From NCBI GenBank assembly GCA_964016885.1, contig OZ024741.1:411432001-411496000 (forward strand): 64,000 nucleotides of DNA, read 5' to 3'. Source of the DNA: Eledone cirrhosa. Taxonomy: Eukaryota. Shown here piece by piece: positions 33,873 to 64,000 of the stretch. The notes beneath the pieces are model-generated. The model was not told where the DNA came from. It ran no database searches and was given only the letters and a program-made list of their open reading frames with translations. The position numbers and the translations under genes are program-made. How positions within the stretch are numbered: position 1 is the first letter of the stretch; each line of letters begins with the position of its first letter.

Positions 33873-33953
33873 CTGTTAGCTGATGATTTAGGAGCCAGAC
33901 TCAGTCTACTGGAACGCAATGTCAACCCCTTTCAACAACCTGACAACTTCATT
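33873..33953 (+). CDS. Host gene coding exon B (81 nt, LLADDLGARLSLLERNVNPFQQPDNFI)
   Basis: Polypyrimidine tract tttcttttcctcccacaAG acceptor, open frame, donor ATT|GTGAGT. Phase 0-0. Unique island between two minisatellites. Confidence 0.8.
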
Positions 33954-39158: not shown

Positions 39159-39319
39159 TATAATAATTATGAATATTGGAAAAAAGAAGAAAGAGAACTC
39201 CTGGGTTCTTTACTCCAAATAATTGGTAGAAGCGATATTCCGAAGATGAAGGAGGAATCTGTCTCAAGATTGACTGACATTGATCACCATTATACCTGTT
39301 TGTCTCAGAAACTATTTCT
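39159..39319 (+). CDS. Host gene coding exon C (161 nt, YNNYEYWKKEERELL...DHHYTCLSQKLF)
   Basis: Acceptor attttcAG, donor TCT|GTAAGT, phase 0-2. HYTCLSQKLF resembles the Munc13 segment QYTCLHENLF at the start of the MUN region (recalled, not searched). Confidence 0.85.
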
Positions 39320-39486: not shown

Positions 39487-39677
39487 AATAATTGTTTCTA
39501 CTTTTGGCACAAGGCCAGCAATTATCCCAGTGTATTACTGGTACTTTATTTTATCGACCCCGTAAGGATGAAAGGCAAAGTTAACCTCGGCAGGATTTGA
39601 ACTCAGATCATAAAGGGAGGTATCTCTATGCTGCATAGCGTCTGACCCTCTACCGATACTGTTAATCCACCGCCCTT
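39487..39677 (-). mobile_element. tRNA-derived SINE, probably with a MetaSINE-type core (copy 1)
   Basis: On the minus strand: tRNA-like head with B box GAGTTCAAATCC, core GCCTTTCATCCTTACGGGGTCGATAAAATAAAGTACCAG, 3' end TGGCCTTGTGCCAAAAGTAGAAACAA(TTA)n. Confidence 0.8.
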
Positions 39678-39873
39678 AATAATAATAATTGTTTCTACTT
39701 TTGGCACAAGGCCAGCAATTACCCAGTACATTACTGGTACTTTATTTTATCAACCCCGTAAGGATGAAAAGCAAAGTTAACTTTGGAGGGATTTGAACTC
39801 AGTCCGTAAAGGGAAGTAACTCTATGCTAGATAGCATGGCGTCCAACCCTCTACTGATACTGCCAATCCACTG
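39678..39873 (-). mobile_element. tRNA-derived SINE (copy 2, head to tail with copy 1)
   Basis: Same motifs. Its (TAA)n tail abuts the head of copy 1. Confidence 0.8.
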
Positions 39874-42183: not shown

Positions 42184-42283
42184 TTATGACAAGAAATGTC
42201 TGGAAACCATTGAGGATCAACCATATGTCTACTCTAACTATTCTGCTTGTATCTTGGAAGAGTTTGGACTTCGTTATGGTGTT
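42184..42283 (+). CDS. Host gene coding exon D (100 nt, YDKKCLETIEDQPYVYSNYSACILEEFGLRYGV)
   Basis: Acceptor tttttcccctaAG, donor GTT|GTAAGT. Phase 2-0 exactly completes the split codon CT|T from exon C. ILEEFGLRYGV resembles Munc13 IVDEFAMRYGV and CAPS VLDEYCARYGV. Confidence 0.85.
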
Positions 42284-42329
42284 GTAAGTGTTTTTCCTGC
42301 TTCTCTTAGTTTTAAATATTGTACTTGAT

Positions 42330-46641: not shown

Positions 46642-46794
46642 AGTCTTCTGATCAGACTTATTGTTTACTTAGACCTTCTTGTGGAACATTTTGACCAAAG
46701 GTTTTCCAAGATTAAACACATATACCATATTCTTCTTGTTCTCTGGTCAATATTTCCTGAAGACAGAAGTAAATTCACCGCCACTGAAAAAGAG
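46642..46794 (+). CDS. Host gene coding exon E (153 nt, SLLIRLIVYLDLLVEHFDQ...KFTATEKE)
   Basis: Acceptor ttttatatttgcAG, donor GAG|GTAAGG, phase 0-0, continues the frame of exon D. No later exon was recognised in the window. Confidence 0.85.
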
Positions 46795-46984
46795 GTAAGG
46801 TTTTTCTTTCTTTTTTCTTCTTCATTAATTGTTAGACAAAATTTCTATTAAATTAAAATTTTCCAACATAATTTTATGTAAGAAGTCATTATATATCTTA
46901 GTAATGAAATAATCATCAGTTGATTCAAATTGAGTGCAATTTTTTGGAAATACTGTAATGAAGGCTTTAAATCAACCCCACACG

Positions 46985-47022
<38 letters not shown>

Positions 47023-47265
47023 TTTTCTTTATTAACCACAAGGGTTTACATAAAGTAGACATTAAGGACAGTACAGGACAATACAGGACGGTACAAATGG
47101 GCATTTCTGCATGTAAAAAAATCAGAGGTTGAAATAAAATAACAAAGAAAAATTCCCCAATAGGGGGGAGACTTCCGAGGGACATTTGTGGACAAAGCCC
47201 ATTAAAAGACCACAGTGGCCCTGACCACCAGGGCAAGTGCCCTCTCCCAGTTTTCCGCCTTTAAT

Positions 47266-50200
47266 TTACAGACACATACTCAGAGAAGGCCCATTCATTC
47301 GGGCCATACTTGCTTCTCTCACGCATCTTTCAACAAAATGCTGGGAAGAGAGCACTTCCCTCTCTACCCTGATTTTCCTTTTCAGATGAAATTTGAAAAA
47401 GTTAATCAGGGCATCACCGAAGAGGTAAGTGCTCGTCTTCAGCCCTTTCAAACGTGTCCACCATACTATCTCTTTCGCCATGGCCACCAGACAGATAAAA
47501 ACTGCCTGCCCTTCCCGGCTAAAGGAAGAGGGCGGGGCAATCCTCACGATGGACTCAGCTGATAGCTGGATCCGTCCTACACGTGACAGCAGGTGTTCGA
47601 CATAAACCCACAAGTCAGCAATGCTCGGACACTGGACGAGTGCGTGCAGGACGGTTTCGTCGCCCTGTGCGCATCTCGGACATGCCCGGCTGATGGCACC
47701 TCCATGCCTGTAAAGTTTATCCCGAACTGGCAAAGCACCCCGGTAGCACTGCCAGGCCAGGGATTTCTGGAAGTTGTCCATAGGCCCCGGCCCGAAAGTC
47801 CTTCCGAAGAGATTGGCTAGTTGATTTTCGTCGACGCCTAGAGTTTCTCCAAGTACGTCGTCGCTCTTCCCCACCACTAATCCCCTATAGAACGCCAAGG
47901 TGGAGTTTCCACCGATCACATTGCCCGATTGGTCGAGGGCTGTGAGCACCTGAAGACAATCCAGTCTCCAAGCGCTCCCTCTCGGTCTTCGCTTGACCCA
48001 GGACTGCATCTCCGTCAAGGAGACGAGCTGGGGAAAGACGCATCTAGCAAACGGCGACCACACCTGATCACCGTCGAGGAAGAGGTGGAGATGTCGTAGC
48101 CTGAGCGCATGTCTGCGCATCATCAGCCACGGCATGCCCAGCCCTCCACGTAGCGGGTGTTGACAGCAGATTGACCGCCTGACCATCAGAGCGCGTCCCT
48201 TCCACAAGAAGCGAAAGAGCAAATGCTCCAGCGCAGTCAGGCGGGGCTTAGGACAAGGTACGACGGTCAGGCGGTAGTAGATGACGGATGCGATGTACGC
48301 ATTCGCCACCTCCGCTCGACCTTTCAGGGATAGCTTCCTCTCGGCCCATTTCTGGGTGAGAGAAGCCACCCTGCTCGTCACCTCGTCCCAGTTTTTGTCC
48401 GTCTGGAGGTCTGGACCGAACCAGACCCCTAGCAATTTAACCGGTCTGTCCGTCCAGCGCCCAACGACGCTGTTGGACGGCATGGACCTGCCTCTCCAGG
48501 TGCCGAGCTGCAGCCCCACTGACTTTTCCTGGTTGATCATTGCTCCTGTCACCGCTTCGTATTCTCTTAGTGTAGTGCCGATCGCCTCGATGTGTTTGGC
48601 GTTCGACACCACTACGGTGACATCGTCGGCATATGCTGACACGGATCTTCCGCATCCTAGTTCGCGCGGGACCCCCCTCAGCGTCTCCAGTTTGTGCAGT
48701 AATGGCTCGAGAGTCAATACGTACAATAGAGACGAGAGGGGACATCCTTGGCGGACCGAGCGCATGATGTTGAACGGTTCCGAAAGGTGACCGTTCACTC
48801 TCACCACAGAGCAGATGTCACTGTGCATGGCAGCGATCCAGCCTCTGAAGATGGGCCCAAAGCCATCCGCCCTCAGGACTGCCGTTAGGTAATGATGGTC
48901 GACCCTATCGAAGGCTTTCGACTGATCTAAATTGATCAAAGACCCACCCGTGCCAGGTTCCTTAGCTACCCTCTCTACGATGTATCGCATGAAGTGGAGG
49001 TTGTCGTGGATGGATCTGTCTGGAATGGCGCATGTCTGCGCCTCTCCCACCAGACCACCAACGACAAGTGCCAACCTCTTTGCTAGCACCTTGGCCAAAA
49101 TCTTGAACTCTGTGTTTAGCAGAGTTATGGGCCTAAAATTATCTATGTTATCCCCCTTGTTCGGATCCTTTCTCAGCAGCGCCACCGCTCCTCGGCTCAC
49201 AGAGCTGGGAATTCTCCCGTTCTGTTGCCAGTTGCAGTAGACGTCTGCCAAGAGGCCTCCGAACAAGTTTGGCATTTGTACGTAAAGTTCATAGGGCAGA
49301 CCATCCAAACCAGGCGATTTACCCTTTGTGCAACTAGTCATTGCATCCCGTACTTCAGCGGTTGTTATCGGCTTTTCGCAACACTCCGCCTCAGTGGCCG
49401 AGAGCCGTGACAGTCCGTCGAGGTAGACACTAAAGTCCATCCCTCGATCCGGCCCGCCACTGCCCCGAAACAGTTGAGCGAAGTGTCGCTGAAAAGCTTC
49501 ACACATTTGCCCGGGATCGAGTAGCTTGCGCCCGTCGTGGTCCACCAAAGACCGGATCGTGGCTTTGTTGCCACGACGCGCCTCCGCCACTCGGGCCCAT
49601 TGAACGGCTTTCGTCCCCTCATGTCTGATAGCACGCACCCTAGCTCTGACAACGCAGCCTTCGTGCTTTGCATTGAAGAATTGGTCAAGGGCCAATTTCG
49701 CCGCAAGTACGTCGGTCGCGATGCCTTTGCTAAGCGCCTCATCTAATTTTCTAACTAGTTCTCCCTCTGCTCTATTTTTCTCTATTGCTAAAGTCTTACT
49801 AAACCTAATGGACTCTATTCTAATTGCTCTTTTCAGAGCAAACCACCACTTGTTGTTGACGATGGCCCCCGTCCAGCGTTCAGCTTCCAGTAACCAGGCC
49901 CTTGTCTATGAAGTCTGTCTATGTCGATCTCACAGATCACAAATTTGTGGTCTGTGTAGTCGACTATTTTAAATTGTGGACAACTTATATTAGCCTTATC
50001 TAGTTCTCTGCAGAATACCCTATCGAGATACGATCTGGATGACCCGATGCGGTTTGTCCATGTCCACATTGGCACATTCGGGTGATCCAGTCGATACCTG
50101 TCAGACAGTTCAAAACGTCTGAGCAGGTTGGTGAGGCCCTTGCACCCTCCTCCCCTATCCACTAGCCCCACACGATCCCAGCGTGCATCCAAGATACCGT

Positions 50201-50627
50201 TCCAGTCGCCCACTAATACTAAAGAGCGGGACGTTCCAAGAAAGGTCTCTAGACGTCTGAAGAAATCTGGCCGTCCTGCCCCTGTTGGGGCGTAGACGGC
50301 TACTAGCCTGAAAGCATTGCCTTCGCTGCTGGTCACGTCCAGCACCACCGACTTACCTTCTGGGTCTAGGAAGATGGCCCGTATCGCGAGATCCAAGCCT
50401 CTCCGAAAAAGGTCGGCGACCCCTCCCCCCGATCCTGGACGGCTGGGAGATGCGCAAACATCGTAGCTGCCGAAGATCGGTGCGAAGGCCTGTGCTTCAG
50501 AGATTCTGGTTTCACTGATGGCCACCACATCTATGTTTAGTGACCTGAGGTCGTTGAGCAGGTGACCCTGCTTCCAAGATGACCCCAGGCCACGTGCATT
50601 TATACTGCCTATTCTGAGTACGGCCAT
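47266..50627 (-). pseudogene. Tx1 copy 1 ORF2 (APE endonuclease + reverse transcriptase), one frameshifting deletion near 49875
   Basis: EN motifs NARGL, SET, VYAP, GDWN, YLDRVF, TDH. RT motifs KSPGLDGLP, FRPITLLN, DQSKAFDRVDH, VRQGCPLS, YADD. C-terminal CPRC..ETVLH..C. About 60 nt are missing relative to copy 2 after YWKLNA. Confidence 0.92.
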
Positions 50628-50659
50628 GTTGGATGAGAAATGGGGCAAGTGAGAAAGGG

Positions 50660-52663
50660 TCACTTACCTTGTTCGTGTGGTGAAGGGACAGTAGAACCGT
50701 CCCTTTCGCTGGTCGTGGGTGTTTCCAAGAGGATGTCAGTGTATATCCTCTTGGTAACCGACCCTCTGAAGTCTCCAACTACATTGGGGAATTTTTGTTT
50801 TAAAGGTTTGTACTGTTCTATTGAGATTTCGATGATGCTTATGTTTGTCGGGAGAGTTCTTGGTGTTGGTGGGGTGTAGTAGTTTTTTTCTGTGATGTCT
50901 GTGTGCTGCTTTATATATTGTATGAGTTCTTTTTTTGCCATGTTTATGGCTGTGTACTTTTTGGGGGAGGGGTGATTTTGTTGCTGTTTTCTTCTTGTTG
51001 CAGTTTGGTGTGTGTGTCTTGTGTTTGCGTTGTTGGTGTTTTTGATAATGCTGGTGGTGGTGTGGTTGTTGTTGTCAGTGGTGGTGATGGTGGTGGTGTT
51101 GCTGCAAGTTTCCTTGCTGCCTTTACCCCTCTTTGTATGCCTTCGCTTTTGGAGGGTGAATCTAAGGGGTTTTTTGTTTTTTTGTTTTTGTGGCAGACCG
51201 TTTGCCACTTCACTCCCACCTCAAACTCCATGTTGGATTCTGTGTTGTCTGGGAGGGGTATGTGCTCCACAGCTGTTGGTGGTGGTAGTGGAGCCCTCTT
51301 CGGCAATTTTGTTGCTGAGGTAGCTACTTCAAATGTAGCTATTGGTGTTGCCGCCACTGATGATGCTGCTTTAGTTGTCCGTGGCCTTGGTACGGGTGCT
51401 ACGGACGTTGCCCTCCTACTCACCGTGGAAGGGGCTTCTTCGTTTGTTGCCTGCCCTGCTCTTGGTAGCAGCGGACCAGGTATTGGAAGGAGAGGGGCCT
51501 TCTTCGCTGTCTTCTGCGGGCAAAAGGCCCTGAGGTGACCCTTCGACCCACAGAGATAACATTTTGGCCGTCTTCCTTCTACACTTATAGGGAGTTGGAG
51601 TCCTTCCTCGATGTCTATGATATCGGGGATAGCGTCGATACATTCCTGGTCAGTTTGTATAAGCATTTGCATGCCTATACCTGACCAGTTCTCTCTCCCT
51701 ATTTTTTCTACTTGCAGCAAGGACAGACGCGGCCAGCCAAGGTATGGGCACGTCGGGTGGGACCTGGGTCACTTTGACCCTCACAATTTTCTGCCCGCAG
51801 TAGGAGGGCACCAAGACTATCTCCTCACTCTTTAGGGTTTCCAAAGAGTGAGACTTTGCTTCCTGGGGGGTGGCGAAAAGTACGTCTACTGTGGCGTACT
51901 TTCTGCCTCGGGTGATGTGGGTTTTGCGTGCCCAGACGCACCCGAAGGCCTTTTGGATTTGAGCCTCCGTGGCTCTCTCCACCCGATGTGAGATTTTGCT
52001 TACGGTGCGGTAAGTCACCGTCCGTAGCTGCTGGTCCTTGAAAAAATCGGGTGGAGGTTTCAGGGAAACTCTATTTGCGCTTCTTGTCACCATGGCCCTT
52101 GCGACTGCCATCTCCTCCTCTGTGACTAACACTGTCTCGATATTTCGAGCGACACCTGCAAAAGAAGTGGTCCCTTTTTCAGCAGCACCACTATTGCTGC
52201 CGTTACTGGTCTTACTGGTGGTGTTGAGAACGCTATTACAGGTATCGGTGCTATTGTTGTTGTTTTCGTTGGTACAGTTGTTGGTGTTGTTGTTGTTGTT
52301 TTCGTTGATACTGTTGCTGTTGTTACTGTTATTGTGGCTGTTGTTATTATTGTTGTTTTTGTTGATACTGTTCCTACTATTATTGTTGTTGTGGCTGTTG
52401 TTATTGTCATTGTTAATGTCGTTCTCGACCTTACCGCTGTTATTTTTGTTATTGTCGTTCTCGACTTTACCGCTGTTGTTTTTGTTGTTGCTGTTGTTGT
52501 TGTTGCTGTTGTTGTTGTTGTTGTTGTTGTTTGTGTTAGAAATATTTGTTAATTTTAAATCTGTTACAATCTTCTTTTCCTTTGTAATATTTTCATTTAT
52601 ATTTACCTCCGCTGGAACGCTGTGTTGTCTGACAGCGCTCTCTCTCTTTCTTATGTTATCCAT
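50660..52663 (-). pseudogene. Tx1 copy 1 ORF1 (gag-like nucleic-acid-binding protein), frameshifted
   Basis: Three overlapping frames (51650-52678, 50944-51720, 50660-51208). Poly-Asn N-terminus, zinc knuckle CYLCGSKGHLRAFC, Pro/Thr-rich linker. Confidence 0.8.
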
Positions 52664-52808
52664 ATTGAAATTTTTCAAAAAAAATATTTTTACACAAATA
52701 CGAATACGGCACCCCGTAAAGGGGTGCCGTATTATTTACTAGTGAACCCCTGTATTAGGTGGGTCACTTCTTCTAAACTTTTATCAAATTTAAAACTTGA
52801 ATAAAAGG

Positions 52809-55800
52809 ATTAACCACAAGGGTTTACATAAAGTAGACATTAAGGACAGTACAGGACAATACAGGACGGTACAAATGGGCATTTCTGCGTGTAAAAAAAC
52901 AAAAACAGAAGATGTAACAAAAAATTAACAATAAAAATTCCCCAATAGGGGGAGACTTCCGAGGGACATTTGTGGAGAAAGCCCTTTAAAAGGCCACAGT
53001 GCCCTCTCCTAGTTTTCCACCTTTAATTTACAGACACATACTCAGAGTAGGCCCATTCACTCGGGCCATACTTGCTTCTCTCACGCATCTTTCAACAAAA
53101 TGCTGGGAAGAGAACACTTCCCTCTCTACCCTGATTTTCCTTTTCAAATTTGAAAAAGTTAATCAGGGCATCACCGAAGAGGTAAGTGCTCGTCTTCAGC
53201 CCTTTCAAACGTGTCCACCATACTATTCCTTTCGCCATGGCCACCAGACAGATAAAAACTGCCTGCCCTTCCCGGCTAAAGGAAGAGGGCGGGGCAATCC
53301 TCAAGATGGACTCAGCTGATAGCTGGATCCGTCATACACGTGACAGCAGGTGTTCGACATAAACCCACAAGTCAGCAATGCTCGGACACTGGACGAGTGC
53401 GGGCAGGACGGTTTCGTCGCCCTGCGCGCATCTCGGACATGCCCGGCTGACGGCACCTCCATGGCTGTAGAGTTTATCCCGAACTGGCAAAGCTCCTCGG
53501 TAGCACTGCCAGGCCAGGGATTTCTGGAAGTTGTCCATAGGCCCCGGTCCGAAAGTTCTTCCGAAGAGATTGGCTAGTTGATTTTCGTCGACGCCTAGAG
53601 TTTCTCCAAGTATGTTGTCGCTCTTCCCCTCCACTAATCCTCTATAGAACGCCAAGGTGGAGTTTCCACCGATCACATTGCCCGATTGGTCAAGGGCTGT
53701 GAGCGCCTGAAGACATTTCAGCCTCCAAGCGCTCCCTCTCGGTCTTCGCTTGACCCAGGACTGCAGCTCCGTCAAGGAGACGAGCTGGGGAAAGACGCAT
53801 CTAGCAAACGGCGACCACACCTGATCACCGTCGAGGAAGAGGTGGAGATGTCGTAGCCTGAGCGCGTGTTTGCGCATCATCAGTCACAGCATACCCAGCC
53901 CTCCACGTAGCGGGTGTTGACAGCAGATCGACCGCCTGACCATCGGAGCGCATCCCTTTCACAAAAAGCGAAAGAGCAAACGCTCCAGCGCAGTCAGGCG
54001 GGGCTTAGGACAAGGTACGACGGTCAGGCGGTAGTAGATGACGGACGTGATGTACGCGTTAGCCACCTCCGCTCGACCTTTCAGGGATAGCTTCCACTCC
54101 ACTGACTTTTCCTGGTTGATCATTGCTCCTGTCACCGCTTCGTATTCTCTTAGTGTAGTGCCGATCGCCTCGATGTGTTTGGCGTTCGACACCACTATGG
54201 TGACATCGTCCGCATATGCTGACATGGATCTTCCGCATCCTAGTTCGTGCGGGATCCCCCTCAACGTCTCCAATTTGTGCAGTAATGGCTCGAGAGTCAA
54301 TACGTACAAGAGGGATGAGAGGGGACATCCTTGGTGGACCGAGCACATCATGTTGAACGGTTCCGAAAGGTGACCGTTCACTCTCACCACAGAGAAGATG
54401 TCGCTGTGCATGGCAGCGATCCAGCCTCTGAAGACGGGCCCAAAGCCAGCCGCCCTCAGGACTGCCGCTAGGTAACGATGGTCAACCCTATCGAAAGCTT
54501 TCGACTGATCTAAATTGATCAAGTACCCACCCGTGCCAGGTTCCCTAGCTACCCTCTCTACGTTGTATCGCATGAGGTGGCGGTTGTCGTGGATGGATCT
54601 GTCTGGAATGGCGCATGTCTGCGCCTCTACCACCAGACCACCAACGACAAGCGCCAACCTCTTTGCTTGCACCTTGGCCAAAATCTTGAACTCTGTGTTT
54701 AGCAGAGTTATGGGCCTGAAATTATCTATGTTATCCCCCTTGTTCAGATCTTTTCTCAGCAGCGCCACAGCTCCTCGGCTCACAGAGCTAGGAATTCTCC
54801 CGTTCTGTTGCCAGTTGCAGTAGACGTCCGCCAAGAGGCCTCCGAACAAGTCTGGCATCTGTACGTAAAGTTCATAGGGCAGACCATCCAAACCAGGCGA
54901 TTTACCCCTTGTGCAGCCAGTCATTGCCTCCCGTACTTCAGCGGCTGTTATCGGCTTTTCGCAACACTCCGCCTCAATGGCCGAGAGCCGCGGCAGTCCG
55001 TCGAGGTAGACACTAAAGTCCATCCCTCAATCCGGCCCGCCGCTGCCCCCGAACAGCTGTGCGAAGTGTCGCTGAAAAGCTTCACACATTTGCCCGGGAT
55101 TGAGTAGCATGCGCCCGTCGTGGTCCACCAAAGACCGGATCGTGGCTTTGTTGCCACGACGCGCCTCCGCCACTCGGGCCCATTGAACGGCTTTCGTCCC
55201 CTCATGTCTGAGAGCACGCACCCTAGCTCTGACAACGCAGCCTTCGTGCTTTGCATTGAATAATTGGTCAAGGGCCAATTTCGCCGCAGGTACGTCGGTC
55301 GCGATGCCTTTCTAAGCGCCTCGTCTAATTTTCTAACTAGTTCTCCCTCTGCTCTATTTTTCTCTATTGCTAAAGCCTTACTAAACCTAATGGACTCTAT
55401 TCTAATTGCTCTTTTCAGAGCAAACCACCACTTGTTGTTGACGATGGCCCCCGTCAACGCCCGCTTAACTAGTTCGCTAATCCGGTCTCTGTAGGCCTTG
55501 CGTGCTGGTAAGGACGCGTATAGCTTCCAGTAGCCGGGTCCTCGTCTATGAAGCCTATCTAAGTCAAGCACACAGATCACGAATTTGTGGTCCGATAGCT
55601 GACTATCTTGAATTGTGGACAGCCTATGCTAGACCTATCTATTTTCCTACAAAATACTCTATCTAGATATGATCTGGATGACCCTACGCGATTTTTCCAA
55701 GTCCACATTGGCACATTCGGCAAATCCAATCGGTACCTGTCAGACAGTTCAAAACTTCTGAGCAGGTTGGTGAGGCTCTTGCACCCTCCTCCCCTATCCG

Positions 55801-58440
55801 CTAATCCCACACAGTCCCAGCGTGCATCTAAGATCCCGTTCCAGTCGCCCACCTACACTAAAGTGCGGGACGTTCCAAGAAAGGTCTCCAGACGCCGGAA
55901 GAAATCAGGCCGCCCTGCTCCTGTCGGGGCATAGACGGCCACTAGCCAGCACGTCCAGCACCACCAACTTACCTTCTGGGTCCAGGAAGATGGCCTGTAT
56001 GGCGAGATCCAAACCTCTCCAAAAAAGCACAGCAACTCCTCCCCCCGATCAGGACGGCTGGGAGATGCATACACATCGTAGCCGCCGAAGATCGGTGCGA
56101 AGGCCCATGCTTCGGAGATTCTGGTCTCGCTGATGGCCACTACATCTATGTTTAGTGACTTGATGTCATTGAGCAGGTGGCCCTGCTTCCATGACGACCC
56201 TAAGCCACGCGCATTTATACTGCCTATTCTGAGTGAGGTCATGTTGAAATGGAGTGGAAAAGATGGGAAAGACCACTTACCTTACTTCTCGTAGAGGAAG
56301 GATGGTTTCTCCATCCTTTTCATTGCTTGTGGCCTCCTCCGCAAGGATGTCCTTATAAATCCTCCTGGAGAGTGCTTGTCGGAAGTCTCCGATGTCTTTG
56401 GGGAATTTTTGTTTTAGTGTTGTGTACGTTTTCTGTGTGATGCGAGTGATTTGTATGTGTGGAGGTGGTGTGAACTTTTAGGTTGTTGTGTAGTCTTTTT
56501 CTGTGATGCTGGTGTTGTGTTGGATGTAGTGTAATAATTGGTTGTTGTTCAAATTTAATGCTGTGTAGTGTGTATCGTTTGGGTTGTTTTGTTTTGTTTG
56601 CGTTTGTTGTGGCTTTATTTCTGTTTCACTTTTTGGTGACTTTTGTGGTGTTGGTGATGATGGTGTTGGGGTTAATGATGGTGATGGTGTTGGTGTTTGT
56701 GGTGATGGGGTTGGTGATGCTGGTGTGGATGGTGACATAGCTGTCCTAACTTTTTTGTTTGATAGTTTATTTGTTTCCCTCTGTATTTTGTTTTTGGAGG
56801 GGGAAGGAAGAGAATTTTTTTCTTTTTTGGTTTCTTTTTCTTTTTTCCTGATACCGTTTCCCACTCCTCGTCGTCACAATCTGTCTCCAGTTGCGATAGG
56901 TCGGGGAGTGGAAAATCGTCCACAGGCGTTGGTTTTGGTTGTGGCGTGGTGGATGGTGTAGGCGCTGGTGCTAGTTCTGGCGCGTTGGGTGGTGGTGGTG
57001 TTGGTTTTGCTACTGTTGCTGGGGTTGTTGCTGTTACAGTTGCTTCTGTTGTTGCTGTTACAGTTGTTGCTGCCATTTCTGCTGCTGGTGGTGTTGATGG
57101 TTGAGTCACTGGGGTGGGTAAGAGAGGTGGCCTCAACCTTTTAGCATGAGGGCAGAAAGCCCTTAGGTGGGTTCCTTCACCACAAACGACACACCTAGGC
57201 CTTCTGCCCTCGACGATTATGGTGAGGTGGCTGCGGTCAGTGAGGTCTATTACCTCTGGGACCCCCTCAATGCTTTTTTGGTCCGCTTGGATCAGGAGCT
57301 CCATCCCAGATCCGGACCAGTTCTCCTGCTTTTCTTTCGCTATTTCGATTATCTTGGTATTGACTTCGATGCCGGCGGGGACGGCAGTCATTAGCCAGGG
57401 AATTTCGATGGCCGGTGGAACGTGGGTCACCCTGATCATTACGAGTCTCTGGCCACAATAGCTTGGGACGAGTGTGAAATCGTCACTTCTTAATGGGGCC
57501 ATGGAGTGTTCTCTGGCCTCCTGTGGTGTTTCAAAGAACACGTCCACGGTTCCATATTTCTGCCCACGTCTGATGTGGGTTTTTTTTGCCCACACATGCC
57601 CCAAAGCTTTTGGGATTTGGGACTCGGTTGCCTGTTCCACTCGGCGCGATTTTATGTTAATCGTCCGATAAGACACGGTGCATAGGCGCCGATGCTCCAT
57701 TTTATTAGGTGTGTGTGTGTGGGGGGGGGGGGCTGACCCTGTACCCATCTTTCTTTACCATTTTTTTGGCTTCTTCGAATTCCTCCTGAGTTACCTGGAA
57801 TGCTTCGCAATTTTTTGCTACTCTGGCAAATGACAGGGTGGTTTTCTTATTCTCATTGTTGCTGTTGTTGTTATCGTTATTTTGTTATTGTTAATTTTAG
57901 TTTCAGTTGTGGTGGTGGTGGCGTCAGTGGTGTTCGGTGTGGAAGAGTTCATTTTGGATGAATTCATTTCGATATCACGAGATAATTTATTTATTTATTT
58001 TGTTTCTGCTGTCGCTGTGGTGGTGGTGGGAGTGGCGGCTTCAACACCTGCAGTCATTGGTAATGGCGGGAAATGAATGTCTGCCTGAGACAAATTTAAA
58101 ATATTGCTACTGCTTATATTTTTAGTGTTGGCAAACGTAGTAATATTTACAATGGTGGTGTCGGTGTGAGGTGTTAGTTTGTGAGGAAGGCTCTCAGCTA
58201 TTTCGTTCAGCTGTGAGTCGGCCATGATTTTTCAAAGAAATTTTTTTTTATGATAATTATAAAAGTTTAAATTTTGGGCTCAAGGCCCCAATCTTTTTGA
58301 GTGTCCTTTTCTGAAAACCATGTATGTGCACTTATATACAGTTAACAATAAAAGTTTTCCATAAATGGCAATTTTAAACAACTGAAAACAACAAACCTTT
58401 GCGGAGCTCACGATGATACGATTTACTACGTAGGTCGCCA
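52809..58440 (-). mobile_element. Tx1/L1-clade retrotransposon, copy 2, full length but decayed
   Basis: 3' UTR and ORF2 closely match copy 1. ORF2 starts MTSLRIGSINARGL at 56242, with a stop at ~55027, frameshifts and an internal deletion at ~54095. ORF1 pieces span 58225 to ~56270 with CVVCGEGTHLRAFC. Confidence 0.92.
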
Positions 58441-58573
58441 ATAATAATAATAATAATAATTGTTTCTACTTTTGGCACAAGGCCAGCAATCAACCAGTAC
58501 ATTACTGGTACTTTATTTTATCCACCCCGTAAGGATGAAAGGCAAAGTTAACCTTGGCGGGATTTGAACTCAG
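58441..58573 (-). mobile_element. 5'-truncated tRNA-derived SINE with (TAA)n tail
   Basis: Nearly identical to 39487-39607. Truncated just past the B box. Confidence 0.85.
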
Positions 58574-59557
58574 AATAATAATGATTTCTTTATTGGCCAC
58601 AAGGGCTGACATCAAGAAAAACATTACAAACGGCACAGGACGAAACAGGAGGGTACGATGTGGGTTCTGTGCGTGTAAATATTTTTATTATTTATATAAG
58701 AAAAGAAAAAAAAAGGACATAGAAACATATATAAATATAAACAATAAAAATGAAAATTGAAACAATGAAAAATTCCCCAATAGGGGGAAACCTCCGAGGG
58801 TTACTCGTGGCGAAAACCACACAAAAGACCACGGCCACCCTGACCACCAGGGAAAGCGGCCTCTCTCAATTTTTCCATTTCTCAAACTACAGACGTATAT
58901 TCAGAGCGGTCCCGTTCATTCGGACCATTCTCGCTACATTCACCTACCTTTCAACAAACTTGCTGAAGGCAGCACTTGCCTCTCCACCCTGATTTTCCTC
59001 TTCAAGTGAAACTTGAAAAAGTTAATTAGGGATTCGCCGAAGAGGAAATTGTCTGTCTTTAACCCTTTTAACCTTGTCCACCACACAATATCTTTCGCCA
59101 TGGACACCAGTCAGATGAAAATCGCCTGCCCTTCCTCCTCGAAGGAAGACGGCGAGACCATCTGCACAATGGACTCAGTCGACAACCGGATCAGTCCTTC
59201 ACACGACAGCAACTGTTCGACATAGCTCCACAAGTCAGCAATGCTCGGGCACTGAACGAGTGCGTGCACGACGGTTTCGTAGCTCTGCGCGCATCTCGGA
59301 CAGGCTCGGCTGACGGCACTTCCGTGCCTATAGAGCTTATCTCAAACTGGCAGCGCTCCCTGGTAGCACTGCCAGGCCAGGGATTTTTGGAAGTTATCCA
59401 TAGGCCCTGGGCTGAAAGTTCTCCGGAAGAGAGCAAACAGCTGATCTTCTTTGACGCCCAGGATCTTTCCGAGAATGTCGTCGCTCTTCCCCTCCACTAG
59501 TCCTCTATAGAACGCCGAGGTGGATGTTCCACTGATACTGGTGCCCAGCTGGCAGAG

Positions 59558-59559
<2 letters not shown>
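58574..59559 (-). mobile_element. Tx1 copy 3, 5'-truncated, diverged subfamily
   Basis: Encodes the ORF2 C-terminus (GPMDNFQKSLAWQCY, ETVVHALVQCPSIADL). The 3' UTR is related to but distinct from that of copies 1, 2 and 4. Confidence 0.85.
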
Positions 59560-59604
<45 letters not shown>

Positions 59605-59856
59605 GGAGAGGGGGAAAATTAACCGATACCAGGACTTAAAGTGGGAGGTAAAAAGGATTTGGAACTGCCATGAAGTCAAGGTCGTCCTGATTGTCATAGG
59701 CGCACTAGGTACTATCTCAAAGAGTTTTCAAGGATGGTTTTAAGAAGATTAGTCCAGCCCCGCTTTTTGGAACACTTCCTGAATCTCTGAGGCTGCAGGT
59801 AGCGGCTTGATATTCATTTCAACAAACTTTCCAGTTAAATAACATGAGACTCAAAG
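59605..59856 (+). mobile_element. Short 3' fragment of an R4/Dong-type (RLE) non-LTR element between (TAA)n tracts
   Basis: Reads ..KINRYQDLKWEVKRIWNCHEVKVVLIVIGALGTISK, homologous to KLSKYKDLEIEIGKMWKLRTKTIPVVVGALG at ~63050-63145. Confidence 0.8.
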
Positions 59857-59868
59857 AACAACAACAAC

Positions 59869-59916
<48 letters not shown>

Positions 59917-59917
<1 letters not shown>

Positions 59918-60500
59918 TTTCCTTTATTAACCACAAAGGTTTACATAAATTAGACATTAAGGACAGTACAGGACAATACAGGACGGTACAAATGGGCATT
60001 TCTGCGTGTAAAAAAAACAGAGGATGTAATAAAATAACAAAGAAAGATTCCCCAATAGGGGGGAGACTTCCGAGGGACATTTGTGGAGAAAGCCCATTAA
60101 AAGACCACAGTGACCCTGACCACCAGGGCAAGTGCCCTCTCCCAGTTTTCCACCTTTAATTTACAGACACATACTCAGAGTAGGCCCATTCACTTGGGCC
60201 ATACTTGCCTCTCTCACCCATCTTTCAACAAAATGCTGGGAAGAGAGCACTTCCCTCTCTACCCTGATTTTCCTTTTCAAATGAAATTTGAAAAAGTTAA
60301 TCAGGGCATCACCGAAGAGGTAAGTGCTCGTCTTCAGCCCTTTCAAACGTGTCCACCATACTATCTCTTTCACCATGGCCACCAGACAGATAAAAACTGC
60401 CTGCCCTTCCCGGCTAAAGGAAGAGGGTGGGGCAATCCTCACGATGGACTCAGCTGATAGCTGGAACCGTCCTACACGTGACAGCAGGTGTTCGACATAA
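59917..60500 (-). mobile_element. Tx1 copy 4, 5'-truncated (~580 bp), flanked by (TAA)n on both sides
   Basis: Nearly identical to 47022-47605. Confidence 0.93.
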
Positions 60501-60540
60501 TAATAATAATGATAATAATAATAATAATAATAATAATAAT

Positions 60541-63409
60541 CAATCGCCAAATAAACCTTCTCCGATCTGACATAGAAATTTAAAAAAACTATAAAGTAGG
60601 TGAACATGTTAAACAAACTAAACTTAGAAAATTGAAAAGAAAGTACAGTATAAGATCAACAAGTGACAGGCATGCTGATAGAAATAATCAAGCAAAAAGT
60701 GTCGGCCAAAGCTGCTCGTATAAGGCACTTTGAAAAACGATCTAGATTCTATAAGAACAATAATATGTTCAAAACCAACCAAAGAAACTTCTACAGAAAA
60801 ATTGGTAAGTCAACAATAACTGCTAAATCAATACCACCCAAGGAGGAAATGCAAGAATTCTGGGAAAAGATCTGGGCCGAAGAAAAAGTTCATAATATAC
60901 ATGCCCCATGGATAGACAGACAAATGAAAGATACAGCTCACCTTGAGGAACAAATATGGGAAAATATAACAGTTGAACAGTTGCGCTTGGCTCTAAGAAA
61001 AACCAGCAAATGGAAATCCCCAGGAAAAGACAAAATACAAAATATTTGGATAAATGCCTTCACAGAGTCTCATGAACTGTAAGCCCAACTTTACAATGAA
61101 ATAGTTAAGGAGCCAGAAAAGATACCATCATGGCTAGTTAACGGCATTACATTCCTGCTTCCGAAGAATGATGAGACAAACAATCCCAAAAATTACAGAC
61201 CGATAACTTGCTTGACTACAATGTATAAAATTTTAACATCAGTCCTAACTGAATATACATATGACCACCTAATAACAAATGACCTATTTCCCATTGAGCA
61301 GAAAGGGTGTAAACGAGGCTCATATGGCTGTAAGGATCAGCTTTTGGTTAACAAAATGATACTGGAAGATTGTCATAATAGACACAAAAATCTATCAATT
61401 GCTTGGATAGATTATAAAAAAGCATTCGATAGTTTGCCACACAGTTGGATTGAAAAATGTTTAGAGATTTTCAAAATATCCCCCGTTGTCAGGAGGTTTT
61501 TGTCATTCAGTATGAAGACATGGAAAACGACACTCCTTTTGAATAGTGAAACAAAATCACTGGAAGCTGGAGAAGTTAATATTAATTGTTGAATTTTTCA
61601 GGGTGACTCTTTATCACCGCTTTTATTCTGCATCGCACTTATACTATTAAGTAAAATGCTTAATGAAACAAAACATGGATATAAAGTCTATGACAAAACC
61701 ATTAATCACTTGTTTTACATGGATGACCTGAAACTATTTGCAAAAAATGATGAACAATTGCAAGGGCTATTATCCACTGTGGAGCAGTTCAGTGATGACA
61801 TTAAAATGGAGTTTGGACTAGATAAATGCGCCAAAGCAACGTTCACCAGAGGAAAGCTGCTGAAAAGTTCAGACATTAATCTTGATCGAGGGAATGTGAT
61901 AAGAGAACTTGATCAAGAAAAAACTTACAAATATCTAGGTGTTTGTGAAGGAGACGGAATCAAGCACTCGACAATGAGGGAAAGGATAAGGAAGGAATGT
62001 TACCGCAGAGTAAGAGCAATCTTAAGAACGGAATTGAATGCAAGGAATAGGATCGATGCCATAAACACGCTTGCCATACCAGTAGTAACCTACAGTTACA
62101 ATGTCATCAACTGGTCAAGCACAGAGATCCGTAGGCTCGATACAAAAATTAGAAAATTCTTAACCATACACAGAATTCATCACCCTAAGGCAGATACAGA
62201 TAGAATATATCTCCCTAGGAAAGAAGGAGGACGTGGGTTAATCCAGTTAGACATTGCGTTGAAAACTGCAACAATTGGATTATCTACATATCTAAGGGAA
62301 TCACATGATTGGATGATCAAACTCGTTTTGAAACACGAAAGCATCAAAAGATCATATTCCATTACAAAAGATGCACAAAGATACAGTAATGGACTTCACA
62401 TTTCAGAAGTCCCATTTACTGCTGAAATGGAAAACACAGAAAAAGCAAAGCAGGTAAAAGTAACTGCAAAGAAAGGACTGCTACAGAAACTGGCTAAGAA
62501 ATGGCAAGAAAAGCCTCTGTATGGAAAATACCCAGAACGAGCTAACAATCCTGATGTTGACAAAACTTTAACCCATCAGTGGTTGGCATCCTCTGGACTG
62601 AAATCGGAGACTGAAGGACTGATTATATCAGCACAAGATCAGTGTCTGCCAACAAAAAATTACCAACCCAACATAATAAAAAATGGATGCAGCCCATTAT
62701 GCCGTGTATGTAAAAAACAACCAGAGACCATTGACCATATAATTTCAATGTGCAGTCCTATAGCTCCAACCGAATACCTAAACAGGCATGACAGAGCTGC
62801 ACAATACATACATTGGATAATGTGTAAGCATTTTGACCTGCCCCATCAAAAGAATTGGTGGGAGCATCAACCACCTCCCATACTTGAAAAAGATCACATC
62901 TCAATCTTGTGGAACTTTAGCATCCAAACAGACCGAAAAATAGATGCAAATAGACCTGATATAATATTGAAGGACTTTAAAAAGAGGGTATGCCTGCTAA
63001 TTGATATGTCCATTCCAATAGACAAGAATGTATCTATAAAAACATTTGAAAAATTGAGCAAGTATAAGGACCTGGAGATAGAAATTGGAAAAATGTGGAA
63101 ATTGAGAACTAAAACAATACCAGTGGTTGTAGGCGCTCTAGGAATGATACCTAAGGGGTCTAATGATTACTTATCGCAAATCCCAGGAAACCCGCGTATA
63201 GGAGAAATACAAAAGATAGTACTAATGGGAACTGCCCATATACTAAGGAAGATTCTGTCAATATAAGTACATCACAAGTCTAAACACTAAAGATGCATGT
63301 GTGAGTATGTATGTTCTTTCTTGAACATGGCGGACCTTGTTGTCTCTTGAGGTCACTGGTTGTGACTTGGTGATAACTCGTATGAACATAAAGCAAGAAA
63401 AATGCAGCT

Positions 63410-63410
<1 letters not shown>
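60541..63410 (+). mobile_element. R4/Dong-clade non-LTR retrotransposon, 5'-truncated, flanked by (TAA)n (60498-60540 and 63411-63452)
   Basis: Single ORF with RT followed by a CCHC finger and a restriction-like endonuclease. Confidence 0.9.
60663..63266 (+). pseudogene. R4/Dong ORF (RT + RLE) with in-frame stops at 61080-61082 and 61590-61592
   Basis: RT motifs WKSPGKD, NYRPITCL, EQKG, WIDYKKAFDS, IFQGDSLSP, HLFYMDDLKLF, YKYLG. Then CRVC..H...C, RHD, RPDI, IDMSIP, KLSKYKDL. Confidence 0.9.
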
Positions 63411-63453
<43 letters not shown>

Positions 63454-63819
63454 CATAACGCACATGGTGGATATATATCGTTATGGAATCGCTCCCGTAA
63501 GTCTTTGATTTTTACTTCTTTAAAACAACTGTGATAGAATAATTCTTATTACAAATGAACAATAAGATGACAGTTTTCACGTTCAGCAAGCTATAACGCA
63601 TCACTTTACGGCATAGGACCCCAATATTTAATATTTAATTTTGGATCAGAAATGTTATAGTCGAAAAAGAGGAAAATGGCAAAATGGCTAAATAGCTAAA
63701 TAGCTAAATGGCTAAGTGGACAGACAGAAAAATAATTTCACCACCAACACCACTACCACGCTAAAAACTCTAGTCAAGTTACCTCAACTTCTATTTCTAC
63801 TTCAACTTCAACACCATCA

Positions 63820-63995
63820 CTACAGTACTACGATCACATCACCACCACCACTGCCTCATTATCGCTACCGCCGCTATTCTCTCCCACTACCTCCTGCTAA
63901 GTATTACTAGCAGAGCACCACCACCACCACCACCACCACCACCACTGCCTCATTATCACTACCGCTGCTATTCTCTCCCACTACCTCCTGCTAAG
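63820..63995. repeat. (ACC)n-rich low-complexity region with a ~60-bp tandem duplication
   Basis: CCACCACCACTGCCTCATTATC-CTACCGC-GCTATTCTCTCCCACTACCTCCTGCTAAG occurs twice. It may be the start of another array at the window edge. Confidence 0.75.
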
Positions 63996-64000
63996 ACATG

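Follow-up and report, generated by a model that had tools for sequence, protein, structure and literature searches.

Oppositely oriented Tx1-like and Dong-like retroelements stacked on a TAA/ATT repeat in an intron of Eledone cirrhosa

The 28S ribosomal DNA (rDNA) harbors R1 and R2, long interspersed nuclear elements (LINEs) with an apurinic/apyrimidinic-type endonuclease (APE) and a restriction-like endonuclease (RLE) that occupy nearby, different sites of one repeated locus in the same orientation; TRAS is another APE-type element, of the R1 clade. SART and TRAS enter the (TTAGG)n telomeric repeats of Bombyx mori in opposite orientations, and SART1 is of the APE type with a poly(A) tail (PMC7265360). 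Within Tx1, microsatellites are the targets of Kibi, (TC)n, Koshi, (TTC)n, and the crocodilian Tx1 elements, (TTCC/TTTC)n, which are APE-type, have a reverse transcriptase (RT) of the L1 group and are target-specific by the rule that more than 20% of the flanks carry the target (PMC4494074). Dong targets the TAA microsatellite (PMC3812793), with TAA repeats upstream of its 5' end in the element sense (as read from a primer; PMC3774820), and the B. mori element carries a hepatitis delta virus (HDV)-like ribozyme at the 5' end (PMC3774820); the review that gives the target puts Dong with the APE types (PMC3812793), and another account puts the R4 clade with the RLE types (PMC4640811). Dong-R4 and L1-Tx1 were recently active in Octopus vulgaris (PMC13282606), and there is a full-length Dong-R4 consensus in O. 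bimaculoides (PMC9115989); the parts of these two octopus accounts covered here contain nothing on targets or stacking, and in the O. vulgaris text the word 'target' is absent. The present analysis concerns a stack of retroelements in Eledone cirrhosa, in which Tx1-like (hereafter Tx) and Dong-like LINEs of opposite orientations are joined end to end on a TAA/ATT repeat. The window is the whole 64,000-nucleotide (nt) stretch that was analyzed (G000:C2:411,432,001-411,496,000), and the genome-wide scans covered the 3.0-Gb assembly.

The stack comprises five Tx copies, four Dong-like copies, one short interspersed nuclear element (SINE) and one unclassified repeat, and all nine LINEs conform to a fixed orientation, Tx on the minus strand and Dong-like on the plus strand, with no exceptions. 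In 46988..63452, where the earlier note, made from the letters of the window, had listed seven elements, their order and strands were borne out (four Tx copies and the SINE on minus, two R4/Dong-like copies on plus), as was the statement that all tracts read TAA on the plus strand, which holds for every TAA/TTA run of at least 3 units in 46,900-64,000. The end of the stack that it had placed at 63452 had to be moved: a full-length Dong-like element starts at 63453 and is followed by a full-length Tx copy and a Dong-like fragment, three further LINEs that carry the stack on to about position 73,507 in extended coordinates (window numbering carried on into the following contig bases). The ten LINE and SINE copies probably arrived one by one, both kinds of LINEs homing to the TAA/ATT repeat and their insertions probably leaving the repeat on both sides. 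The components of the stack are as follows.

46988..47020, plus: (TAA)11, left edge, on the tail side of the first Tx copy
47021..52808, minus: Tx1-like LINE, head type A, first ~72 bp absent, 5' end without a tract; frameshifted open reading frame (ORF) 1 with a zinc knuckle, APE at 50624-49836, RT frame at 49905-47266
52809..58440, minus: Tx1-like LINE of head type B; the full-length head lies on a tract, ~174 bp are deleted internally at 54099, and the 3' tip is absent along with the tail
58442..58459, plus: (TAA)6, at once the tail of the SINE and the tract that flanks the type B head at its 5' end
58460..58576, minus: SINE, 5'-truncated (~115 of 190 bp), with an (ATT)n tail
~58575..58583, plus: short AAT run AATAATAAT, by which the type C Tx copy, whose tail it is, adjoins the 5' break of the SINE
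58584..59559, minus: 5'-truncated Tx1-like LINE of type C, ~0.97 kb long, with ~79% identity to type A
59560..59604, plus: (TAA)15, between a Tx 5' end and a Dong-like 5' end
59605..59860, plus: fragment of Dong-like family B with the last part of the RLE domain plus the 3' untranslated region (UTR) and with an internal deletion
59871..59915, plus: (TAA)15, tail to tail, with (CAA)n before it
59916..60497, minus: Tx1-like LINE with the A/B type of 3' end, 5'-truncated (0.58 kb)
60498..60539, plus: (TAA)4 TGA (TAA)9, runs starting at 60498 and 60513, between two 5' ends
60540..63410, plus: 5'-truncated copy of Dong-like family A that retains the final 2.87 of 4.95 kb; RT, CCHC and C-terminal RLE with the RPD..D..K motif, in-frame stops present
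63411..63452, plus: (TAA)14, tail of family A and 5' flank of the next element
63453..extended 67,848, plus: Dong-like family B, full-length
between extended 67,848 and 67,888: (TAA)10
extended 67,888-73,162, minus: Tx type C, full-length
between extended 73,162 and 73,187: interrupted TAA tract
extended 73,187-73,507, plus: Dong-like family B fragment
between extended 73,507 and 73,525: short AAT run
extended 73,525-73,640, minus: unclassified repeat, followed by host DNA

The four Tx copies of the window represent three head types (A, B and C), each of the two R4 copies is from a different family, the blastn likeness between the families being limited to ~100 bp, and the divergence of the stack copies from their relatives is unequal (median identity 75–98%). 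For the Tx and Dong A samples, which consist of the best matches, the 3' ends (Tx) and copies (Dong A) are 98–100% alike, and some Tx copies retain a stop-free frame of ~1,150 residues; the Tx and Dong A copies are young.

The two kinds of LINEs differ in their endonucleases, APE and RLE, as the earlier note had it and as the domain and structure matches agree. In the Tx copies, an Exo_endo_phos match (E 1.7e-13) at the start of ORF2 represents the APE and aligns with L1 endonuclease structures, and the RT region matches RVT_1 and zf-RVT, with human L1 ORF2 (E ~1e-42) ahead of R2 (E ~1e-20) among the PDB matches, in keeping with an RT of the L1 group. The zinc knuckle of ORF1 is a weak zf-CCHC match in the first copy (E 0.0027, 18.2 bits, with a cut-off of 20.8), and no zf-CCHC was found in the frame examined in the second. 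The closest named relative of the Tx protein is from Argonauta hians (67%), and no named Tx1 reference is among the matches listed in homologue searches with this protein. The plus-strand copies have an R2-type RT, a CCHC finger and a C-terminal RLE, align to R2 proteins (R2Tg) and, in the frame of the window copy as well as in family B, carry the CRVC..H..C and RPDII..LLIDMS..K motifs, in agreement with the RLE placement of the R4 clade. A full-length copy is a single reading frame without an APE, which is the R4/Dong architecture, and these elements have (TAA)n on both sides in the element sense. No named R4/Dong reference is among the 120 homologues listed for the protein; we call these elements Dong-like, as candidate members of the R4/Dong clade rather than of NeSL or HERO. 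Dong of B. mori, DongAg and DongBg likewise combine the TAA target with a single ORF encoding an RT and a C-terminal RLE; the difference is that here one target serves two divergent families (tblastx segments of A and B are mostly 32–58% identical) as well as APE-type elements. At the DNA level, families A and B are alike only over the first ~100 bp (78%; 63453-63557), possibly a conserved 5' RNA structure. An Rfam search of five loci with E up to 1 yielded no ribozyme family, only low-complexity matches below the cut-off, and BLASTP of two protein fragments, which overlap only in part, gave nothing significant.

The opposite orientations relative to the tract are fixed not only in the stack but also genome-wide, as counted with exact head patterns, using the reverse strand so that each site counts once. 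Among the 1,489 exact matches to the type B Tx head, TTATTA lies 1–5 nt upstream of 709 of the 736 reverse-strand heads and TAATAA upstream of none of the 1,489. For the 466 exact matches to the Dong A head, the polarity is reversed, with TAATAA 0–5 nt upstream of 162 of the 240 reverse-strand heads and TTATTA upstream of one of the 466; in 17 of the first 20 misses, at least 3 TAA units occur within ~40 nt, a short purine-rich or duplicated sequence parting the tract from the head. Similar inserts (purine-rich, duplicated-head or (GAA)n) often stand between the tract and the full-length Dong A heads at L230-L249. The samples seeded with the window copies show the same pattern: 15 of 15 nt at the mapped 5' end are ATT in 29 of 39 Tx copies, two more have a type C head on ATT, all 29 type A copies examined by eye abut ATT at the 5' end, and at least 12 of 15 nt are TAA in 31 of 39 Dong A copies, most of them truncated. 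By the >20% rule (PMC4494074), the Tx family is target-specific. At random flank positions, a tract of at least 4 units is found at 39 (ATT) and 26 (TAA) of 12,400, i.e. 0.3% and 0.2%, so that chance placement of the tracts at the junctions is excluded.

Both families end in the repeat, and therefore, tracts at 3' ends prove nothing by themselves; the tract is present, however, at the 5' junctions too, including the head-to-head ones. In the window, the tracts at 59560 and 60498, and these only, are flanked by two 5' ends, and a tract in this position is the tail of neither neighbor. The same arrangement recurs across the genome. Of 56 full-length Tx heads, 47 have a library element or a tail-like end on the far side of their 5' tract, among them 20 with a Dong 5' end, where again the tract cannot be the tail of either element, and 23 with a Tx or SINE tail. 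Beyond the Tx tail, a library element follows in 24 of 39 cases (17 inverted Dong, 6 SINE, 1 Tx), beyond the Dong A tail in 31 of 39 (17 same-strand Dong, 8 inverted Tx, 4 inverted SINE, 2 inverted Dong) and beyond the type C Tx tail in 19 of 29, the type C 5' ends having been left out of partner scoring because of a gap in the reference copy. Stacking is thus routine in this genome, and the present locus is one of many. An early automatic tally of junctions (Tx: 47 ATT, 0 TAA, 51 none; Dong: 108 TAA, 1 ATT, 36 none; SINE: 28 ATT, 1 TAA, 81 none) was set aside because it mixed true ends with alignment breaks and collapsed identical heads. The idea of the earlier note, that two endonuclease types use the same microsatellite in opposite orientations, would have fallen with mostly tract-less 5' junctions or random orientation; judged from sequence, the head counts and the 47 stacked heads support it.

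The SINE serves as a control. Its head follows TTATTA in 880 of 10,776 cases, ~8% compared with 96% for the Tx head, with a gap of 0–3 nt rather than the 1–5 nt used for Tx and with tandem head arrays included in the SINE denominator; the SINE is not a tract targeter. The 30 SINE copies inspected mostly have unique flanks, many with target duplications of 10–15 bp that begin with ATT. The SINE resembles the Tx 3' end over ~25 nt (CCTTGTG..GAAA, then ATT), with a similar predicted terminal stem-loop and shuffle p values of 0.003 for type C, 0.04 for types A and B, and >0.99 for Dong. A 3' end resembling Tx1 is also known from SINEU-3 and Tx1-Mar (PMC4494074); the likeness here spans ~25 nt only, and the SINE here differs in lacking the tract preference of Tx. 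There are at least 21,472 exact SINE heads, some in ~45-bp tandem arrays, e.g. at G000:C1:10.32-10.36 Mb, and in the window, upstream of the stack, two tandem minus-strand SINEs are joined by (TAA)4 at 39490-39869.

Several observations weigh against one-by-one arrival by homing to the repeat. All but two of the seven window tracts adjoin a 3' end and might be tails. The junction between the first two Tx copies (52808/52809), the sole one of its kind in the stack, has no tract; the first copy lacks there ~72 bp of its head, a segment that occurs in 28 of 29 other copies, and the second lacks the last ~10 bp and the tail, so that this junction is best read as a later deletion or as a truncated insertion in which target sequence was lost. 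Among 33 tailed blocks of truncated Tx copies, only 12 have at least 3 ATT units within 15 nt of the break, and the other 21 have no ATT tract by the same rule (none has TAA); by eye, ~9 of these 21 show a short or broken ATT run and ~4 are alignment breaks. Eight of the 39 Dong A copies fall below 12 of 15 TAA positions, and two of the 39 Dong A tails are followed, in the alignment listing, by a Dong piece in the opposite orientation. The seeded samples, being the best matches to the window copies, lean toward young and long ones. The name Tx1, and with it the clade, is presumed from architecture. No empty or partial allele was seen, the contigs of X1-X3, all from one sample, ending at a tract or flanking repeat on both sides without joining the two flanks. 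Nicking of opposite strands is a step that we infer from target-primed reverse transcription, and the same applies to the splitting and growth of tracts, since a target duplication is unreadable within a pure repeat.

In target-primed reverse transcription, the strand opposite to the element sense is nicked first and primes cDNA synthesis. The Tx sense strand reads ATT, which implies priming on the (TAA)n strand, and that of Dong reads TAA, which implies the (TTA)n strand; accordingly worded, the Tx enzyme would nick and prime on the (TAA)n strand with the (AUU)n end of its RNA, and the Dong enzyme would prime on the (TTA)n strand with a (UAA)n RNA end. Each insertion would split one tract in two, both parts being replenished by duplication of the target, by the tail that the element brings along and by slippage, and the number of landing sites per locus would increase with every insertion. 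Tails of Tx, SINE and other ATT-tailed repeats might seed new stacks; the seed here was probably the tail of the unclassified repeat at the far end of the stack, other copies of which likewise begin with AAT on the side that faces the stack. No host function is needed or implied.

The orientation might, instead, be set by pairing of the RNA tail, with loose cutting of the AT-rich repeat on either strand and extension of tail-paired 3' ends only, a reading that we regard as unlikely but as the most serious of the alternatives. Tail and flank indeed agree in sense and unit for each family, the ATT start of the SINE duplications is reminiscent of the correlation between tails and target-site duplications in RTE elements (PMC6007223), and the 5' breaks of Dong A show an excess of TAA microhomology (mean 1.9 versus 1.0 nt, p ~0.002; n=25, with two repeated breakpoints included). 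The SINE, however, shares the ATT tail and rarely sits on the tract, and exchange of endonucleases shifts the choice of target in SART/TRAS (PMC7265360). The SINE control and the endonuclease swap together favor the nuclease as the source of polarity, and the microhomology at the Dong breaks indicates that pairing matters too. A different proposal, that full-length Tx copies carry their own upstream (ATT)n, acquired from a transcription start in the donor tract, and have a loose preference for ATT sites, would explain why full-length copies lie on ATT (20 of 20 in the sample and 709 of 736 genome-wide) and truncated ones only in the 12 of 33 cases mentioned above. Those 12 copies nevertheless abut long tracts, as do two truncated ones in the stack (59559 and 60497), no unique-sequence duplication is apparent beyond the tails of 28 full-length copies, and 47 of 56 heads adjoin the end of another element, which makes this proposal quite improbable.

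That the stack arose through 3' transduction, through tandem duplication or by recombination of one tract with another appears very improbable. An inverted Dong behind the Tx tail at 17 of 39 loci, two Dong A copies 10.5 kb apart with a common breakpoint (L128 and L129) and the existence of mosaic Tx copies could all be so explained, but wherever the partner breakpoints are visible, they are all different: the Dong B partners behind Tx tails have 8 different breakpoints in the 8 of 15 cases with visible ends, and hence were not carried as one unit. Furthermore, five distinct LINE types that have diverged to unequal extents are present in the stack, and none of its tract-to-tract units repeats another. 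That the repeats were misjoined at microsatellites during assembly, an explanation that agrees with the fact that no short-read contig crosses any tract, deserves hardly any credence, given that the two flanks of the stack are consecutive exons of one spliced contig, that every copy has private deletions and breakpoints, and that misjoins cannot yield a 709-to-0 orientation bias. Serial insertion by homing thus remains the preferred account of the locus.

Set against the systems described at the outset, this account combines known habits with one apparently new target, ATT, and an apparently new pairing, each ingredient having a precedent. The literature searched, mostly open-access and without Repbase, yielded no ATT-targeting Tx1, and the same mostly open-access literature yielded no case of APE and RLE elements sharing one microsatellite. 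Unlike in Kibi and Koshi, the target here is (ATT)n rather than TC-rich, the host is an octopod, and the target is shared by three exchangeable head types. SART and TRAS are alike in being two families that face opposite ways in one simple repeat, but theirs is telomeric, whereas here APE and RLE elements share a dispersed trinucleotide and have tails built of the target unit. With R1 and R2, insertion leaves the number of targets unmultiplied, unlike what is proposed here. Targeted LINEs of the APE type would gain ATT as an additional target, and two unrelated nucleases that use one short repeat with opposite polarity form a natural pair with which the roles of the nuclease and of RNA-tail pairing in setting site and orientation become testable. 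A broader idea, offered tentatively and with less than even confidence, is that a hitherto undescribed (ATT)n-homing Tx1 lineage and the Dong-like RLE elements form a self-amplifying pair on the two strands of one trinucleotide. Seeded by the ATT tails of highly abundant SINEs and of other repeats, the pair would build polarized stacks at thousands of loci and act as a major, directional force behind the giant introns of this octopod, the SINE making use of Tx1 enzymes; if true, the ~0.3 kb of host DNA within 27 kb at this locus would exemplify the outcome.

The intron in question extends from 46,795 to extended 73,769 (26,975 bp, with GT..AG ends). The stack accounts for 26,653 bp of it and other DNA for 322 bp. 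Stacking of this kind offers a concrete way for introns and genomes to grow, the 26.65 kb of elements here still being spliced out. The flanking exons are the following.

46642..46794, plus: host exon upstream of the stack, from the X4 contig and a match to homologue P0121
extended 73,770-73,869: next host exon, from the X4 contig

A 2,876-nt contig of run X4 covers 46,642-46,794 without a mismatch and continues in the next exon; the parts of the contig that hang over the downstream exon read as the last part of the first exon on one side and as the opening part of the following exon on the other. That a GT..AG intron is skipped is the only ground for regarding the contig as spliced RNA, the run type not being recorded. 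By the evidence of this one contig, which gives no indication of the level of expression, splicing of the host gene still bridges the stack. The homologue of the host protein is an uncharacterized 1,525-amino-acid Argonauta protein without a Pfam family, and the closest named relative is from Argonauta hians; the two exons directly after the stack do not align to the Argonauta homologue at E<1, and earlier and later exons do. A 50-bp match between the left and right flanks of the stack (84%) is not taken as a target duplication, since it falls in a local degenerate repeat.

The host gene has short exons (~33873-33953, 39159-39319, 42185-42285 and 46642-46794) with minisatellite arrays in between, the units of which measure 48, 8, 20, 37 and 49 bp (the 48-bp array is at 1451-30101); its other introns are enlarged by tandem repeats, not by LINEs. 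A later intron contains a 1-kb ATT-joined cluster (L228, extended 91,137-92,180) that consists of SINE, SINE, truncated Tx and SINE; all four are on the plus strand, and the polarity of clusters is therefore independent of the direction of the gene. Another Tx stack is located 0.55 Mb away (L166, G000:C2:412.036-412.042 Mb), with a type A head 99% identical to that of the window.

The Tx copies are mosaic: heads A, B and C differ in the 5' UTR and ORF1, and the RT and 3' halves are near-identical, with types A and B 97.6% identical in the 3' 2.85 kb and at most 79% upstream (copies in 47021-58440). In two copies, L042 and L057, a type B body carries a type C head, L069 also belongs to the mosaic set, and all three head types follow ATT. 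The type A 5' UTR contains a GC-rich hairpin at 52703-52744 with CTAG close after it on the plus strand, an arrangement that resembles a Helitron 3' end and is also present in other type A copies.

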